DNA from: Chloroflexota bacterium
GTDB taxonomy: Bacteria; Chloroflexota; Limnocylindria; QHBO01
NCBI GenBank assembly: GCA_039932375.1
Contig: JBDTQD010000001.1
Location: 15,844 to 79,843, forward strand
Length of the DNA stretch: 64,000 nucleotides
Direction of reading: 5' to 3'
Shown: positions 6,139 to 64,000 of the stretch, piece by piece
Position numbering within the stretch: the stretch's first letter is position 1
Layout: each line of letters opens with the position of its first letter
The notes under the pieces: model-generated
Database searches by the model: none
Told to the model about the DNA's origin: nothing
What the model saw: the letters and a program-made list of their open reading frames with translations, nothing else
Position numbers and translations under genes: made by a program

Positions 6139-6214
6139 GCCCCCGTAGCTCAGCGGATAGAGCGAGGCCGTCCTAAGGCCTGCGTCGGGGGTTCGATTCC
6201 CTCCGGGGGCGCCA
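6139..6214 (+). tRNA. tRNA-Arg (anticodon CCU)
   Basis: Cloverleaf read by hand. Acceptor gcccccg/cgggggc. D-arm gctc-agcggatag-agcg. Anticodon stem aggcc/ggcct with loop gtCCTaa. T-arm gggggttcgattccctcc. Discriminator G, then CCA. Confidence 0.85.
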
Positions 6215-6339
6215 CAACCCGTGCTCGAATGTCTCTTCAGCGGCATGGCGGACACCGGCGCTGTTAGGCTGTTGCAACCTGTGCTGCCGCATTATCGGTC
6301 GGTGCCAGGGCGGGGGCTGGCCACAGCCCTGACTGTCAA

Positions 6340-6558
6340 TTGGAGGAGAAGAAGCCCATGAGTCAGACCAATGTCACCGTCCCGGGGGACGGCTCGTCGG
6401 GGATGGGGGCAGGAATGATCGTCGGCCTCGTGCTGGCCATCGTCATCCTCGGCTTCATCGTCTGGTATTTCCTGCTGAACGGGAATGGCGGGGGAACGCC
6501 GTCGCAGAGCACCGGTCCGTTGCAGAGCATCCTGCAGAGCCTGCCTGCGTCGAGCTGA
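6340..6558 (+). CDS. small hypothetical membrane protein (72 aa, one TM helix)
   Basis: A GGAGGAG ribosome-binding site sits 8 nt upstream. Hydrophobic core MIVGLVLAIVILGFIVWYFLL. Confidence 0.4.
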   Translation: MEEKKPMSQTNVTVPGDGSSGMGAGMIVGLVLAIVILGFIVWYFLLNGNGGGTPSQSTGPLQSILQSLPASS

Positions 6559-6595
6559 CCTGCTCAGCCAGTAATCGCGCGGTGCGCCGCGGGCC

Positions 6596-6925
6596 CTAGT
6601 GGCTCGCGGCGCTCGTGCCGTTCAGCAGCACCACGCCGACGATGATCAGACCGATGCCGGCCAGCTTCATCGTGTCGAGCACCTCGCGGAAGAGGAAGTA
6701 GCCGATCACCACGATCGCCGCCGTGCCGACTCCCGACCAGATGGCATACACCACGCCGAGCGGGATGCTGCGCAGCGTCACCGACAGGGCGTAGAAGCTG
6801 ACCGCGTAGCCGAGCACCACGACGCCTGACGGGATCGGCCTGGTGAAGCCATCGGAGAGCTTGAGCGAGACGGTTGCGACGATCTCGGAGCCGATCGCCA
6901 GGGCCAGCCAGAGGGCGGGGTGCAT
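6596..6925 (-). CDS. SMR-family small multidrug efflux protein (EmrE/QacE-like)
   Basis: 109 aa with four TM segments. Conserved membrane-embedded Glu in LAIGSEIVATVSLK. ...AIWSGVGTAAIVVIGYFLF. Confidence 0.85.
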   Translation of the reverse strand: MHPALWLALAIGSEIVATVSLKLSDGFTRPIPSGVVVLGYAVSFYALSVTLRSIPLGVVYAIWSGVGTAAIVVIGYFLFREVLDTMKLAGIGLIIVGVVLLNGTSAASH

Positions 6926-22721: not shown

Positions 22722-23369
22722 ATGATCAGGACCACCAGATTCGAGGCCGATGAAGTCGCCGGCCTCGCCGCACGCCTGGGGGTGGTCGAAGCGGTCGACC
22801 TCGAGGAGCTGCGTCGTGGGATGCATGTCGAGCTGGAGCACGGTCGCCGCGACCCGCTCACCAACGTGACTGATGACGATCCGCTGCTGACGGCCAAGAT
22901 CGCGCTGGCGCATCTGCGCGAGCTGCCGGACTACTACACCCGGCTGGCAGCCATGGAAGCCGGCGCCGAGGGCGGCCAACCGCGCGTCCGGGACCTGATG
23001 ACGCTCGAACCGCTGACGGTTCGCGACAACAGCCCGCTGATCAGGGCGGAGCGCGTGATGCGCGAGAGCAGCGTCAGCGGCCTGCCGGTCGTCGATGGCG
23101 AGGGCCGGCTTGTCGGCGTCGTGAGCCAGACCGACCTGATGCGGGTCGCGAGCGGCCCCGACGACCAGGCGTGGCACGGGAACTCGGTTGCCAGCACGAT
23201 GACCGCGCCGGGCCTCACGGTTGAAGCCGATGCCTCCCTCGCCGCGGCCGCGGCCATGATGGTGCAGCATCACGTTCACCGGCTCGTCGTGGTGGAGGCG
23301 AATGGCGGCCGTCCAATCGGGATCCTGTCGACAACGGACCTGGTCCGCGCGGTGGCCGACGGGGCGTGA
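22722..23369 (+). CDS. CBS-pair domain protein with an N-terminal ~85-aa domain of unknown function
   Basis: Two CBS motifs: VRDLMTLEPLTVRDN...GLPVVDGEGRLVGVVSQTDL and ...HRLVVVEANGGRPIGILSTTDLV. N-terminal region GMHVELEHGRRDPLTNVTDDDPLLTAKIALAHLRELPDYY. Confidence 0.7.
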   Translation: MIRTTRFEADEVAGLAARLGVVEAVDLEELRRGMHVELEHGRRDPLTNVTDDDPLLTAKIALAHLRELPDYYTRLAAMEAGAEGGQPRVRDLMTLEPLTVRDNSPLIRAERVMRESSVSGLPVVDGEGRLVGVVSQTDLMRVASGPDDQAWHGNSVASTMTAPGLTVEADASLAAAAAMMVQHHVHRLVVVEANGGRPIGILSTTDLVRAVADGA

Positions 23370-23418
23370 CGGGTGAGTTGACCCGCTCTCGACGGCTCGG
23401 GCACAATGCGGACCCCGA

Positions 23419-23495
23419 GGGCGGCTAGCTCAGTTGGTTAGAGCACTTGCTTGACATGCAAGAGGTCACTGGTTCGAGTCCAGTGTCGCCCACCA
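23419..23495 (+). tRNA. tRNA-Val (anticodon GAC)
   Basis: Acceptor gggcggc/gtcgccc (one G-U pair). D-arm gctc-agttggtta-gagc. Anticodon stem cttgc/gcaag with loop ttGACat. T-arm actgg-ttcgagt-ccagt. Discriminator A, then CCA. Confidence 0.85.
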
Positions 23496-23509
23496 AACAC
23501 TGTCTTTAG
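23487..23509. repeat. direct repeat, copy 1: last 9 nt of tRNA-Val plus 14 nt downstream (CGCCCACCAAACACTGTCTTTAG)
   Basis: Copy 2 is at 23911-23933 (CGCCCACCAAACACCGTCTTCAG), 21 of 23 identical. This looks like att-style duplication of a tRNA 3' end. Confidence 0.7.
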
Positions 23510-23681
23510 CGCGAACTGACCGTCCTAATGGACGGCATCATGCAGATGCTCCGTCGCCGCGAGGTCAGCAATGACGTTGACAGCGCGACGAGGTCTCGCT
23601 GCGACGGCCGTGGCGATCAGTAGCTTGCAGGCGACCCGGTCCCGCCGGCCCGCGCGCAACATTCGCCGTACCCTGTGACCA

Positions 23682-23852
23682 ATGGACTTGCGCCCGGGCA
23701 TCATTCTCACGGTCACCGGAATCGTTGCTCTAGCTCACTACTTCCTGAACCTGCCTGGGCACCTGCCGCGCGGGGCCGAGCTCATCATCGCAGTCGCGCT
23801 GGTCGTGCTGGGAGTACCGCTACTCATCGTCGCGATCGCCCATCCGCGGTGA
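23682..23852 (+). CDS. 56-aa two-TM membrane ORF inside the repeat-bracketed segment (below the 60-aa cutoff of the ORF track)
   Basis: MDLRPGIILTVTGIVALAHYFLNLPGHLPRGAELIIAVALVVLGVPLLIVAIAHPR. Two clean hydrophobic helices. Confidence 0.3.
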   Translation: MDLRPGIILTVTGIVALAHYFLNLPGHLPRGAELIIAVALVVLGVPLLIVAIAHPR

Positions 23853-23910
23853 GTGAGCAAGTGCAGGGCTGATCCCGACGCGTGGCTTATCTGCTGCGAC
23901 AGCGTTCGGG

Positions 23911-23933
23911 CGCCCACCAAACACCGTCTTCAG
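23911..23933. repeat. direct repeat, copy 2 of the tRNA-Val 3' end (putative attR-like scar)
   Basis: See the repeat at 23487-23509. It lies 68 bp upstream of tatA. Confidence 0.7.
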
Positions 23934-24001
23934 TGCCGGTGGACGGGATGTCGAGCGAGGAATAGTCTTCGGCGGACAACCGCTGAGTCCGGAGGCAACC
24001 C

Positions 24002-24238
24002 ATGGGCGCAATCTCACCCCTACACCTCGTCCTCCTCCTGGTAGTCGTGTTGATCATCTTTGGTCCGGGCAAGCTGCCAGAGGTGGGTGGCGCCATCGGC
24101 CGTGGCCTACGCGAGTTCCGCAAGGCGGCCGAGGGGCTCGAGGACACGATCCGCAGCGAAGCTACCGCCGCAGAGAGCCCGGCGCCCGCGTCACCAAGCC
24201 AGCCACCCACCGACGACACCGCCAGCACCCCAGGGTGA
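24002..24238 (+). CDS. tatA: twin-arginine translocase subunit TatA/E
   Basis: LHLVLLLVVVLIIFGPGKLPEVGGAIGRGLREFRKA is the classic TatA TM helix plus amphipathic helix (FGP...G..G...FK). Confidence 0.9.
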   Translation: MGAISPLHLVLLLVVVLIIFGPGKLPEVGGAIGRGLREFRKAAEGLEDTIRSEATAAESPAPASPSQPPTDDTASTPG

Positions 24239-24466
24239 CGCTCGACGGCCCCCTCGATGGCATGGGTGCCGGCTGAGGCTGCGCGGCCGTTCGGTTGGTA
24301 AGTTGTCGGCGTCTGGCCGATCAGGAGAACCCGGGAATGACAAGCCAGGGCCATGGGCCCAGGCGGGTCAACGGAGATTGAGGTCGGGCATGGCGGCTTG
24401 GCCGGCCTCACGCTCGGGGCTCAAGCTCGTTCGTCGTCATGCGAGCCGTGCCACGTGATCCAGACC

Positions 24467-26929
24467 CTAGCCTGCAACCACGGCCACGTGGATGTTGTGT
24501 CCTTCCCAACGATCGGCCCCGGGCCAATAAAACGTCGCCTCGATCGCCTCCCCGGCGGCAAGCCCCTCCGACCTCGGAATGTCCGCCACCCAAACCCCGA
24601 GGCCGGTGTCCGAGGCATCCAGGTCGAGGGTGGTGCGCCACGCGTCCATCGACCAGCGGACACGACAGGGCGCGAGCAGTTCGAAGCGGAGCGTGCGGCC
24701 GGTCACCATCGTTGGCCGCGGCGCGGTGAAGCGCCAGGTTGCCCTCGTCGCGACAGGACGGATCCCGTGGTATCGATCCCATGCCGCCTCCGGGCGGTCG
24801 ATGGCATGGCCGAGCGCGATGGACCGGACGAGCTTGACGTACTCTGCGTGGGCCCAGGCGAGGGGCATCGCAGAGCCACTTGGCCGCCCGTAGACGAGGC
24901 CGCGGTCGAGGATGTCGGGCGCGTCCCAGACTTGCTCCGGAAGCATGCCCCCCTGCGACCCGAGGCCGCGCATCGCCTGGAGGTACGGCCGCGCGTCGCG
25001 CCCAGCGTCCAGCTCGTAGTGACCGCGCTCTCCGACCAAGAGCGGCCATCCGCGCCCGATTCCCGTCCCGTCGAACGGTCCGCCGTCCGCGTGCTCGCCG
25101 TATCCGTCGCCAGAGTACCTGTGCCACAGCGGCCCGTTCGGCGTCTCCATGCGCAGGAGGGCGTCGGTCACCACCAGAGTCGAGAGGATCCGTGGGTCGT
25201 CGGCACGTCGCAGCCCGAAGCGCACGAGGGCGAGAAAGTCGGTCCCCACCATCTCGTCACCCCGGATCATGGATTCTGTGGGCAGGCGGTTGTGAATGGG
25301 CACCGGCGTCGCCATCGAAGCCCCTGCCAGAACATCCGACGAGGCGATGCGGATGTAGTGGCCGTCCACGCCATGCTCTCGGGCCAGCCGGGAGCCAACC
25401 GCGTACGTCCATTCCTCGATCGAGGCGTTCCAATCGTCAGCAACCTCTCGGCAGTACGCTGCCGCGGGGCCGGGCAGGTAGTCAGCGGCGACCACGAGCG
25501 CCGCGACGACCGGGGCAAGCGTCGACGGGGTCAGGCCGCCATTCTCCTCCCAGCGGTCCTGCTGGGTCGCCGGCCCCGTTCGCGCGATGAAGCTGACGGC
25601 CGCTTCGATCATTCGACTGAGCGAGTCCTCGGCGACCAGATGCTCGAAGGCCGCTGCCTCCTCGCTGCGACCATGCATACGGGTCGCCCCTCCCCGCCGC
25701 AGTTCCCCGGCCAGCAGGATTGGGTAGGCGGCTTCGTCGAGTTGGGTACCGCTCCAATATGGAACGCCGTCCACCCACTGGTTCTGGGCCCAGTGCCCAT
25801 CGGGCTCCTGCGTGGCGATGAGATACGCGAGCGTGTGCCGTGCAGCCGTGCGCGCCCCGAGCGCGACGAGGGCACCCGCGCACTCGACGAGATCCCGTGA
25901 CCAGACCAGGTGGTAGCCACCGAGGTCATTCCGCGTATTGCCCCACGGGATGGAGAGGCTCGCCACAGTGGCTCCCGGCGAGGTGCGGTCCTGGTGCGTG
26001 CGCAAGACGGCCGCAGAGTCCAGGTACAGCGCCTGGAGATCCTCATCGAGGTCAGCCGGTGGAGGGCTGCAGGTGCCCAGAAAGCCCTCCCAGTTGGCGA
26101 CGTACTCGTCCCAGGCCACCTGGAAGTGGCCAACAAGCGCGGCGGAGGCCTGAAGCGCGGCCTCCTCGGGGCGGCCGCCGAAGCCGAGCGCGACCTGGAT
26201 GGGCTCGTCCCCCGGGGCGAGCTCGATCATGCCCGCGACGTTCCCCTTGTCGGTGGACGAATAGGTCCATGCCATTCGACCATTCGTTGCGAAGTCTTGC
26301 CACCCGTCAGATGCGCCAACGTAGCCCACGCTCTGCTGTAGCGGGGGCGAGTCGCTGACCAGGGCGAGTGAGGCCGAGTCGTTCTGCGCGAACAACGTCG
26401 GGTGACCTTTGTATGTTCCAATCCACGCGCGGTTGTGCAAGCCGTTAAAACCGAGGTGGGGCGCAAGCAGCGGATAGAGCCGCAACGGATGGAGTGTGCG
26501 CGCTTGGTCTGATGAGCTCCGCAGATCCTCGAGCGTGGCCTCAATGCGCACGACGTCAGCGTGGTCATCGGCGCAGATGCGCAGCACAAGCACGTACCGG
26601 GAGTGGCGATGCACGGCCACCACCGCGGGTATGCCGGGCCGGACGAACCCCACCTCGACCTCGGCGTCCCGCTTCACTTCGCTCCAGAACCCCGATCCGT
26701 CCGCGACGATGAATCCGAGGTCCCGCACCTGCGGGGCATCGACACGGGGCCAGTAGATCTCGTTGAGGATGCCGTGCCCGACGGTGAACCAGACGCGGCT
26801 GGCGTATTGTGAGGTGCCGACGGCGTCCTTGGCGCTGCTCGACCAGGTGGGAGCGATGCCCGGAGCGCCGGGGGCCGGACCCGAGACGAGCTGGTCGGGC
26901 GCCGTGGCGGAGGATGCATCGCCGGTCAT
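24467..26929 (-). CDS. glycoside hydrolase family 15 (glucoamylase/glucodextranase/trehalase-like), three-domain bacterial type
   Basis: 820 aa: N-terminal beta-sandwich, (alpha/alpha)6 barrel, C-terminal beta domain. The GH15 barrel is recognised from composition (WSRDLVECAGAL..., WEENGGLTPSTLA..., LPEQVWD). Family assignment is from memory. Confidence 0.7.
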   Translation of the reverse strand: MTGDASSATAPDQLVSGPAPGAPGIAPTWSSSAKDAVGTSQYASRVWFTVGHGILNEIYWPRVDAPQVRDLGFIVADGSGFWSEVKRDAEVEVGFVRPGIPAVVAVHRHSRYVLVLRICADDHADVVRIEATLEDLRSSSDQARTLHPLRLYPLLAPHLGFNGLHNRAWIGTYKGHPTLFAQNDSASLALVSDSPPLQQSVGYVGASDGWQDFATNGRMAWTYSSTDKGNVAGMIELAPGDEPIQVALGFGGRPEEAALQASAALVGHFQVAWDEYVANWEGFLGTCSPPPADLDEDLQALYLDSAAVLRTHQDRTSPGATVASLSIPWGNTRNDLGGYHLVWSRDLVECAGALVALGARTAARHTLAYLIATQEPDGHWAQNQWVDGVPYWSGTQLDEAAYPILLAGELRRGGATRMHGRSEEAAAFEHLVAEDSLSRMIEAAVSFIARTGPATQQDRWEENGGLTPSTLAPVVAALVVAADYLPGPAAAYCREVADDWNASIEEWTYAVGSRLAREHGVDGHYIRIASSDVLAGASMATPVPIHNRLPTESMIRGDEMVGTDFLALVRFGLRRADDPRILSTLVVTDALLRMETPNGPLWHRYSGDGYGEHADGGPFDGTGIGRGWPLLVGERGHYELDAGRDARPYLQAMRGLGSQGGMLPEQVWDAPDILDRGLVYGRPSGSAMPLAWAHAEYVKLVRSIALGHAIDRPEAAWDRYHGIRPVATRATWRFTAPRPTMVTGRTLRFELLAPCRVRWSMDAWRTTLDLDASDTGLGVWVADIPRSEGLAAGEAIEATFYWPGADRWEGHNIHVAVVAG

Positions 26930-63001: not shown

Positions 63002-63044
63002 GTTCAGTATTGCACATCCATCCTTGCGTTGCAACGTCTCCCGC

Positions 63045-63192
63045 GAACGCTGAGCGTTCATATCGGCCAACTTCGCAGGCCCATGAGGCGATATCGGCGC
63101 AATATTGGCCGGTGTGAACGCTGAGCGAGCAAGGCGCCCAACATCAGGGCATTTCGCAGGACAACTTGGCCGATGTGAACGTTGAGCGTTCA
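63045..63192. repeat. ~150-bp inverted-repeat element, copy C
   Basis: GAACGCTGAGCGTTCA (63045-63060), inner GTGAACGCTGAGCGAGC, terminal GTGAACGTTGAGCGTTCA (63175-63192), and the GGCCAACTTC / CAACTTGGCC pair. It lies between divergent ArsR and the alpha/beta-hydrolase gene. Confidence 0.75.
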
Positions 63193-63236: not shown

Positions 63237-64000
63237 ATGGGCGACGTGACCTCCAAGGACGGGACAACCATCGTCTTCGACGAGCTCGGCGACGGGCCGC
63301 CGGTCGTCCTTGTCAGCGGCGGCTCCGTGGATCGCTCATCCAACGCCCCCCTGGCTGATCAACTGGCCAAGGACTTCACCGTCTTCAACTACGACCGACG
63401 CGGCCGCGGACCCAGCGGGGACACCCAGCCGTACGCGGTCCAGCGCGAGGTCGAGGACATCGAGGCGGTCATCGGTGCCGCAGGCGGATCCGCCGCGCTC
63501 TATGGGAGCTCCTCGGGAGCCGCACTGGCGTTGGAGGCTGCCATCGCCGGCGCCCCCATCACCAAGCTGGCGCTCTGGGAGCCGCCGTACATCCTGTCCG
63601 GGCGCCCGCACCCGCCCACCGACACCGCCAAGATCTACCGCGACTTCGTGGCGGCGGGTCGTCGCGGCGACGCAGTCGAGTTCTTCATGTCGAAGGTGGT
63701 CGGCCTGCCCGATGAATTCGTCGCCGGCGCTCGCAGCTCACCGTGGTGGCCGGCCCAGGAGGCCCTCGCCCACACCCTCGCTTTCGATGCCGAGATCATG
63801 GCCGACTACTCCCTGCCAACCAAGCGGGCGGCAAAAGTCACCATCCCCACACTGATCGTCGACGGCGCCGCCAGCTTCGGCTTCATGGCCGAAACCGCCG
63901 ATGCGATGGCGCACGCCATGCCGAATGCAGAACGCCGCACCCTTGAGGGCCAGAGCCACGACGTGTCGGCCGAAGTGCTGGGTCCGGTGCTGAAGGAGTT
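63237..64000 (+). CDS. alpha/beta hydrolase, 3' end outside the window
   Basis: MGDVTSKDGTTIVFDELGDGPPVVLVSGG ... LYGSSSGAALALEAA (GxSxG). The open frame runs to the window end, so it is absent from the ORF track. Confidence 0.7.
   Translation, partial: MGDVTSKDGTTIVFDELGDGPPVVLVSGGSVDRSSNAPLADQLAKDFTVFNYDRRGRGPSGDTQPYAVQREVEDIEAVIGAAGGSAALYGSSSGAALALEAAIAGAPITKLALWEPPYILSGRPHPPTDTAKIYRDFVAAGRRGDAVEFFMSKVVGLPDEFVAGARSSPWWPAQEALAHTLAFDAEIMADYSLPTKRAAKVTIPTLIVDGAASFGFMAETADAMAHAMPNAERRTLEGQSHDVSAEVLGPVLKE

Follow-up and report, generated by a model that had tools for sequence, protein, structure and literature searches.

A 26-nt direct repeat at the 3' end of tRNA-Val(GAC) in a Limnocylindria-related Chloroflexota genome: a possible integration remnant around a small membrane-protein gene

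At the ends of genomic islands integrated into tRNA genes (tDNAs), a regenerated target gene together with a displaced fragment is the mark of integration (PMC4383910), and a crossover at the asymmetric 3' end of the tDNA is an established sublocation for some integrase subfamilies (10.1101/2020.11.02.365908, summarising earlier work). Such islands, as described by Islander, measure kilobases to tens of kilobases and encode an integrase. CIMEs, which have kept attL and attR and lost the genes for integration, are also a recognised class (PMC5704250). The locus described here lies in a 64-kb window (the whole stretch of DNA that was analysed) of a high-GC Chloroflexota MAG, whose nearest relatives, by tRNA and by protein, bear the labels Limnocylindria or Limnocylindrales. 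It shares with tDNA-integrated islands an intact tRNA gene at one end and a 3'-end direct repeat at the other end of foreign DNA, as well as sharp repeat edges and a target tRNA that is used repeatedly in the clade. In contrast to these islands, it measures 0.4 kb, lacks an integrase and has a repeat composed of 9 nt of tRNA and 17 nt of trailer. Examined by the Islander criteria, the locus has a regenerated tRNA and a displaced fragment, the latter with just 9 nt of tRNA, whereas an integrase inside the element, a foreign composition and mobile-element genes are all missing.

Like CIMEs, the locus is bordered by att-like repeats at the 3' end of a tRNA gene and lacks genes for recombination and transfer, such that an integrase would have to act in trans. 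Unlike them, the locus is far smaller and resides in Chloroflexota, whereas the CIMEs of the cited review are tied to streptococcal elements (PMC5704250); furthermore, no related autonomous element or cognate integrase with the same core was found, and the units present in relatives use a different, longer core. MITEs and other small non-autonomous transposons are likewise small, devoid of a transposase and flanked by direct repeats. Unlike MITEs or IS-derived elements, the locus has no terminal inverted repeats and is single-copy in the window and among all fetched loci, and its 26-bp repeat far exceeds known target-site duplications. On these comparisons, the locus appears to resemble most closely the scar of a tDNA-integrated island or a CIME, and it should be called an att-like remnant, neither island nor CIME, because the repeat is in place while the integrase and the foreign composition are absent. 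It most likely represents a new, very small example of a common genomic scar and not a new mechanism.

The intact tRNA-Val(GAC) gene, with an encoded CCA, is located at positions 23419-23495 of the forward strand (ARAGORN; Rfam RF00005, 70.1 bits). Its last 9 nt (CGCCCACCA) and the following 17 nt of trailer constitute repeat copy 1 (23487-23512, forward strand), and an attR-like copy 2 (CGCCCACCAAACACCGTCTTCAGTGC) is found at 23911-23936 on the same strand. The two copies form an ungapped direct repeat of 26 nt with 23 of 26 positions identical, a spacing of 424 nt and an exact block of 14 nt. The earlier note had reported a 23-nt repeat with 21 identical bases, and this identity is reproduced within a slightly greater true length. 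In a pattern search, the 23-mer at 23487-23509 recurs with two mismatches at 23911-23933 (two matches; 0.00 expected from 100 shuffles) and has no third occurrence in the 64-kb window. Copy 2 ends 66 nt before the ATG of tatA (24002-24238, forward strand; TIGR01411, 65.1 bits against a cutoff of 53.9), in agreement with its previous placement just upstream of this gene. The tatA gene is preceded by a GGAGG ribosome-binding site at 23991-23995, and for the identical tatA gene in locus L005 the Pfam family TatA_B_E is recorded.

A screen of the whole 64-kb window for direct-repeat pairs that lie within 1 kb and agree at 21 or more of 23 positions identified two only, the one at tRNA-Val and another at 63105/63166, while each of 10 Markov-1 randomisations of the window yielded zero. 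Chance is excluded as the origin of the tRNA-Val pair. All independent contigs that span the locus, drawn from several samples and with a second NCBI MAG among them, show the arrangement at 97.8-100% identity, which excludes an assembly artefact. The pair at 63105/63166 is an operator-like repeat unrelated to that at tRNA-Val.

The homology between the two copies ends abruptly on both sides. Beyond the copies, neither the 40 nt on the left (p=0.57) nor the 60 nt on the right (p=0.73) aligns better than random segments of the window, and in this comparison no recognisable tRNA body was detected upstream of copy 2. Two candidate extensions were considered and rejected at chance level: a leftward one into the T-arm (GTTCGGG vs GGTTCGAG), which looks T-loop-like by eye (p=0.57), and a rightward one across a 13-nt indel (TGGACGGCAT vs TGGACGGGAT, with TGGACGG after the gap; p=0.73). 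Judged from these alignments, the sharp edges are the pattern of a recombination junction and not that of an eroding longer duplication, and the step-like boundary argues against both a decayed second tRNA gene and an eroded long duplication. The attL/attR-like geometry recognised in the earlier note is real, with a repeat that starts within the 3' end of an intact tRNA, has sharp edges and brackets an insert devoid of a recombinase.

The bracketed insert comprises 398 bp (23513-23910), close to the approximately 400 bp given previously, and, as stated then, encodes no recombinase. Neither a recombinase motif nor a phmmer hit to one was found anywhere in the 64-kb window, and none is listed in the precomputed Pfam annotation from -7.5 to +6 kb around L005. 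Furthermore, the insert contains no mobile-element genes and no Rfam match, its ends carry no terminal inverted repeats, and no second copy of it exists in the window or in any fetched locus. Its GC content (0.59-0.67) is near that of the surroundings, without compositional anomaly. Outside the open reading frame (ORF) described below, which forms part of a more widely shared module, the insert has no similarity to any fetched locus.

The 56-amino-acid (aa) two-helix membrane ORF that had been noticed in the insert (23682-23852, forward strand) is present as described and, moreover, represents a conserved small-protein gene of an unnamed family. Ten homologues share 66-100% identity with it, among them homologues at 66-82%, and the identical one is recorded under the name 'MAG: hypothetical protein ABI978_00635 [Chloroflexota bacterium]'. 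Across 1.84 billion representatives, a profile search recovered 54 clusters at 50% identity (E<=1e-3), nearly all of 50-90 aa, and the family has 18 invariant columns (GIILTVTG...LAHY...EL...VLG); no Pfam or NCBIfam family matches the protein. Against distant homologues, dN/dS is 0.27-0.45 and indels are in-frame only, which indicates that the ORF is a genuine gene under purifying selection. The synonymous divergence from the copies in L009 and L216 is low (dS 0.13-0.23), although the flanks cannot be aligned. The DNA shared with these two loci extends from about 10 nt before the ORF start to about 25 nt past its stop and no further. This shared module ends well inside the repeats; the recurring unit is therefore the gene and not a repeat-bounded cassette.

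The genomic contexts of the homologues are diverse: near a MazE-like antitoxin gene, between an MFS transporter and a GNAT acetyltransferase, and adjoining an M23 peptidase, a DUF6815 protein or a PadR regulator. No tRNA-Val was identified near the homologues in these unrelated contexts, and a search around them in six other contexts yielded no convincing direct repeats of a comparable kind. Because members of the ORF family are found in other Chloroflexota in no fewer than six unrelated contexts, the insert, as judged from its gene content, carries DNA that cannot be of local origin.

The trailer of the tRNA gene is of a type common in the clade. The sequence directly after copy 1, GAACTGACCG, agrees at 10 of 10 positions with the consensus built from the trailers of 13 other tRNA-Val copies in Limnocylindria, and the best match of the profile of these 13 trailers in the window is located at 23508-23533 (E=0.19 for 64 kb). 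As read from the sequence, a hairpin (CCGTCC-TAAT-GGACGG; 23520-23535, forward strand) is formed in the trailer; the segment 23480-23545, which holds it, folds with z=-2.2, and an equivalent hairpin (GACCGCC...GGCGGTC) is found at the same offset in L040, L047 and L068. By the same profile, the clade-typical trailer is absent after copy 2, where unrelated sequence follows. Copy 2 shows no notable structure (z=+0.87) and the fold of the region as a whole is not better than that of its shuffles (z=-0.98); when the region and the two copies were folded as RNA and as DNA, the trailer hairpin was all that emerged, and the tRNA is the sole Rfam match in the region. An integron gene cassette was also considered and rejected, copy 2 having no attC-like structure (z=+0.87) and an integrase being absent. 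A promoter-like site (TTGACC-18-CACAAT; 23378-23407, forward strand), assigned by consensus match alone, is located just upstream of the tRNA and is the sole sigma-70-like match within 23300-24300. Between tRNA-Val and tatA, neither a promoter-like nor a terminator-like site was identified, and 23300-24300 as a whole has no terminator-like site.

All near-identical strains and contigs carry the insert, with no presence/absence variation among the strains sampled; the low-coverage contigs L008 and L215, whose differences lie mainly at error-prone ends, were left out as evidence of variation. The earlier note had envisaged empty sites or larger islands at the tRNA-Val/tatA junction of related genomes. 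Among the strains and relatives retrieved, neither was found, the near-identical strains all being filled and the others non-syntenic. In relatives at 70-90% protein identity, synteny is lost exactly at this junction. To its left, the metagenomic loci L132-L134 conserve a block of genes encoding a histidine kinase, a response regulator and a 230-aa membrane protein (58-90% identity to those of the window) and a CBS/DUF5661 protein (~70%). After the CBS gene, other genes follow, such as that for an alcohol dehydrogenase in L133, and tRNA-Val is absent. The search for an empty site via this left-flank gene in a metagenome scan was abandoned, since L132-L134 are syntenic and lack tRNA-Val at that place. 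To the right, the gene pair G6PD-GH15 is kept in L212-L214 at ~80% identity with neither tatA nor tRNA-Val adjacent, and the corresponding search via GH15 ended with these three orthologous loci. The tRNA-Val 3' half is identical in more than 100 Chloroflexota/Limnocylindria genomes, and a genome scan with it returned 120 loci; none of the ~115 other loci of this kind has tatA, the small ORF or the flanking genes of the window nearby. As far as these gene orders indicate, the 0.9-kb segment of tRNA-Val, small ORF and tatA is situated at a synteny breakpoint. Viral contigs (IMG/VR) contained no match to the 26-bp core, nor did the tRNA-Val 3' half match viral contigs.

Displaced 3' fragments of tRNA-Val(GAC) were identified in at least eight other Limnocylindria species genomes. 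The 3' half without the 5' half is found in L012, L032, L045, L056 (two), L070, L080, L110, L117 (two) and L127, where the fragments extend from the anticodon stem to the CCA (~48 nt of tRNA) and are preceded by conserved non-tRNA DNA. Five genomes (L045, L056, L070, L117 and L127) contain a repeated unit of ~270 nt that consists of a conserved upstream arm (~180 nt), the tRNA 3' half and a trailer (~45 nt), with a 14-nt motif (TGACCGCATAACTG) that flanks the tRNA part on either side at a constant distance. Genes near the fragments are of a kind usual for the cargo or debris of islands and encode TerC, a P-type ATPase, a multicopper oxidase and an IS3-family transposase, and a tyrosine-recombinase-like fragment was also detected (phmmer E=3e-8). 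In L127, an integrase fragment and an IS3 transposase lie ~3 kb from the tRNA-Val fragment, and in L056 a single gene (TerC) is found between two tRNA-Val-fragment units. No integrase is adjacent to intact or partial tRNA-Val in the relatives. These units are best read as putative attR-type or attP-type junctions of integrative elements, some of them in tandem. Because displaced fragments occur in at least eight species genomes, several beside metal-resistance genes and IS or integrase debris, we regard tRNA-Val(GAC) as a genuine integration hotspot in Limnocylindria.

The locus in the window shares with the ~270-nt units of these five genomes the tRNA species and the trailer type (…CTGACCG…TAA…). 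In contrast to these units, which comprise a 48-nt tRNA 3' half from the anticodon stem and an arm of ~180 nt, it has neither, its core consisting of 9 nt of tRNA and trailer. A short duplicate of the 3' end and trailer, as seen in the window, was not found at any other tRNA-Val locus. The idea that copy 2 is an attR with an internal deletion was raised by a resemblance of the upstream sequence GCGACAGCGTTCGGGCG to the element end GCACAGCGTTCAGGCGG, which precedes the fragments in L045 and L127. It was dropped when the element-end 17-mer, with up to 3 mismatches, had no match in the window, and an nhmmer profile of seven element arms likewise detected nothing near copy 2 (E>10).

We hypothesize that a Campbell-type integration at the 3' end of tRNA-Val left the locus behind as a decayed, non-autonomous remnant, a reading to which we give about an even chance. 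In its favour are the repeat, which exceeds chance by far, begins within the tRNA 3' end and has sharp edges, the non-local DNA in the insert, the synteny breakpoint, the use of tRNA-Val(GAC) as a target elsewhere in the class and the literature cited above. A circular DNA would have inserted at the extreme 3' end of tRNA-Val(GAC), the most probable catalyst being a tyrosine integrase specific for the asymmetric 3'-end sublocation in tRNA genes. The crossover in a shared core of ~26 bp would have regenerated the tRNA on the left and displaced a core copy to the right, beside the original downstream DNA that now leads to tatA. The element, once larger, would later have shrunk to 398 bp, leaving a tRNA-trailer-like stretch, the selected small membrane-protein gene and two core copies; these may have drifted apart by 3 of 26 bases and, without a recombinase of its own, the element would have become fixed and non-autonomous. 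In canonical Campbell integration, it is the element that supplies the DNA behind the tRNA-proximal copy, and here the element would have had to carry a captured tRNA end together with a clade-type trailer. This added assumption is a weakness of the proposed scheme, albeit a plausible one, as units of the L056 type do carry such a trailer.

Several observations count against the remnant reading. On sequence comparison, the clade-typical trailer follows copy 1 and not copy 2, the fragments of relatives begin as far back as the anticodon stem instead of 9 nt before the tRNA end, and the ends of the insert appear to have no significant similarity to the element arm of relatives. In addition, no recombinase, empty site, polymorphism, compositional anomaly or viral-contig core was found in the sequences surveyed. 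The earlier note had offered two interpretations, a decayed remnant and a miniature cassette mobilised in trans. The former fits better, whereas the latter is unsupported by polymorphism, by an empty site or by repeats flanking the homologues.

The second of these interpretations would make the insert an active, CIME-like mini-cassette of ~0.4 kb whose 26-bp sites are recognised by an integrase encoded elsewhere and which excises as a circle with its cargo gene. Both sites are kept at 88% identity with their 14-nt exact block, the ORF family is spread over many unrelated contexts with the low dS values (0.13-0.23) to L009 and L216 despite unalignable flanks, CIMEs mobilised in trans are documented (PMC5704250), and TerC in L056 stands alone between two tRNA-Val-fragment units. 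Against this, the 64-kb window yielded no cognate integrase, the ORF homologues elsewhere are accompanied by neither comparable direct repeats nor tRNA fragments, the shared module, with ~10 nt before and ~25 nt after the ORF, falls well short of the repeats, and the 3 differing bases out of 26 suggest that the copies have drifted since they last exchanged. An active cassette therefore seems quite unlikely to us, and the more specific proposal of a functional 0.4-kb single-gene micro-cassette with a 26-bp att core, moved in trans by a 3'-end-type integrase of Limnocylindria, would be less probable still. The absence of a recombinase, element-like sequence, compositional signal and polymorphism is also what would be expected if no integrase was ever involved and the 26 bp were duplicated during a non-mobile insertion, by illegitimate or short-homology recombination or by break repair with template switching. 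The repeat takes in just 9 nt of the tRNA and is otherwise trailer, such that the overlap could be incidental to an insertion into the spacer, and the lineage shows extensive rearrangement of gene order overall. Yet 26-bp duplications made by repair around a foreign 398-bp segment would be unusual, the left edge falls on the tRNA 3' end, the one place where integrase-made repeats are expected, and tRNA-Val is recurrently targeted in Limnocylindria; we consider this origin unlikely, while still giving it some weight.

Two further explanations were considered. The 26 nt might be kept twice as a functional cis-element, either a processing or termination signal reused before tatA or the site of a regulator or small RNA. 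Copy 2 does lie within the 5' region of tatA, and with no promoter-like or terminator-like site separating tRNA, ORF and tatA, co-transcription followed by processing is conceivable. Nevertheless, neither copy 2 (z=+0.87) nor the region (z=-0.98) is structured, Rfam gives no match, the sequence is found nowhere else in the window, the conserved hairpin-forming part of the trailer in relatives lies past the repeat and is missing from copy 2, and 9 nt of acceptor strand cannot mimic a tRNA, leaving little probability for such a role. Alternatively, copy 2 could be the last piece of a second tRNA-Val gene that arose by tandem duplication and decayed. Tandem duplication of tRNA genes does occur and the copy retains the 3' end with CCA and trailer, but decay predicts a gradient, whereas 26 nt at 88% identity adjoin 40 nt at random level (p=0.57). 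The intervening DNA furthermore duplicates nothing local, and ARAGORN and Rfam find nothing at copy 2. We regard this last explanation as extremely improbable.

The direct value of the finding is modest. If the remnant reading holds, the locus shows how small an insertion at a tRNA gene can become while selection on a small cargo gene persists, and should the repeats be functional sites, the locus would offer a minimal substrate for work on integrases that act at tRNA 3' ends. If the micro-cassette proposal were true, the unit would be much smaller than any att-flanked mobilisable unit described so far and would have no precedent in Chloroflexota, with the small membrane protein as travelling cargo, which would explain the unrelated contexts of this gene in the phylum. 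Although not surprising, the unnamed small-protein family and the tRNA-Val hotspot of Limnocylindria are useful annotations. The former flags a conserved, unannotated family of membrane proteins of 50-60 aa, a size class that is missed by ORF-length cutoffs, and the latter now marks tRNA-Val(GAC) as a hotspot in a poorly studied, uncultivated class of soil and freshwater Chloroflexota.

The products of a past or present excision can be predicted from the two repeat copies. The empty-site junction would read tRNA...CGCCCACCAAACAC[C/T]GTCTT[C/T]AGTGCCGGTGGACGG, or in its longer form GAGTCCAGTGTCGCCCACCAAACAC[C/T]GTCTT[C/T]AGTGCCGGTGGACGGGATG. The junction of the excised circle would be ...GCGTTCGGG-core-GAACTGACCG..., with the longer form GACAGCGTTCGGGCGCCCACCAAACAC[C/T]GTCTT[C/T]AG[C/T]GCGAACTGACCGTCC.

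The segment of the window carrying tRNA-Val, the small ORF and tatA (23369-24467) fills exactly the gap between two gene blocks, both of which relatives conserve: HK-RR-TM230-CBS on the left, kept by the metagenomic relatives L132-L134, and GH15-G6PD on the right, kept by L212-L214. Across all relatives retrieved, these two blocks never adjoin each other, tRNA-Val or tatA, and gene order is highly fluid in the lineage of the window. Logan contigs from different samples that match this region terminate at two places within the segment. Three of them (L002, L006 and L007) end at 23464-23469, inside the tRNA, which is an expected place for contigs to break since the tRNA is common to many genomes. 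A fourth (L001) ends at 23904, 7 nt before the second copy of the repeated tRNA-Val end. Strain variation at the junction, producing a branch in the assembly graph, could explain this contig end, as could low coverage alone.

Several Limnocylindria species genomes share a recurrent unit of ~270 nt, in which a conserved arm of ~180 nt is joined to the 3' half of tRNA-Val(GAC), lacking the 5' half, and to a trailer of ~45 nt. The motif TGACCGCATAACTG flanks the tRNA part of this unit on both sides at fixed offsets. Among the loci with a tRNA-Val 3' half found in the genome scan, single copies of the unit occur in L045 (5413-5586), L127 (4656-4820) and, on the minus strand, L070 (6305-6520). Two copies each are present in L056 (505-774 and 2945-3214) and L117 (2067-2213 and 6304-6522, minus strand), and a second type of tRNA-Val-fragment unit was identified in L012 and L080. 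Neighbouring genes encode TerC, a P-type ATPase, a multicopper oxidase, an IS3 transposase and an integrase fragment, whereas the 8-kb blocks containing the units showed no complete integrase gene. A family of integrative elements probably left these units as attR-type or attP-type junctions, with some arranged in tandem.

L056 additionally contains a third, rearranged fragment of the ~270-nt unit (828-1000), in which a piece spanning the T-arm to the CCA end runs into the arm sequence, with the reverse complement of the arm coming next. The resulting long, near-perfect palindrome is centred on the anticodon-loop sequence (z=-6.2 when folded as DNA), and one possibility is that it arose as an aberrant recombination product.

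Many Limnocylindria also encode a conserved element directly 3' of tRNA-Val, a candidate T-box leader matching RF00230. Such an element, located at 4251-4466 in L077, accompanies 30 of 125 tRNA-Val copies (including those of L013, L026, L036, L049 and L066), where it lies in the initial ~200 nt of downstream sequence, and is absent from the window. The match scores only 38.8 bits (E=2e-7) compared with a gathering score of 93, and the element is thus missed at the default Rfam threshold.

Besides the tRNA-Val end pair, the only close direct repeat in the window lies in an intergenic region (63040-63190) upstream of an ORF starting at 63238, where three copies of a TGAACGCTGAGCGTTCA-like palindromic motif (~63047, ~63115 and ~63176) look like a repeated operator for a dimeric regulator. 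Furthermore, L068, from an uncultured Chloroflexia MAG, harbours a tandem repeat array (6159-6660) ~3 kb downstream of its tRNA-Val, with a period of ~57 nt and copies that are 88-94% identical.
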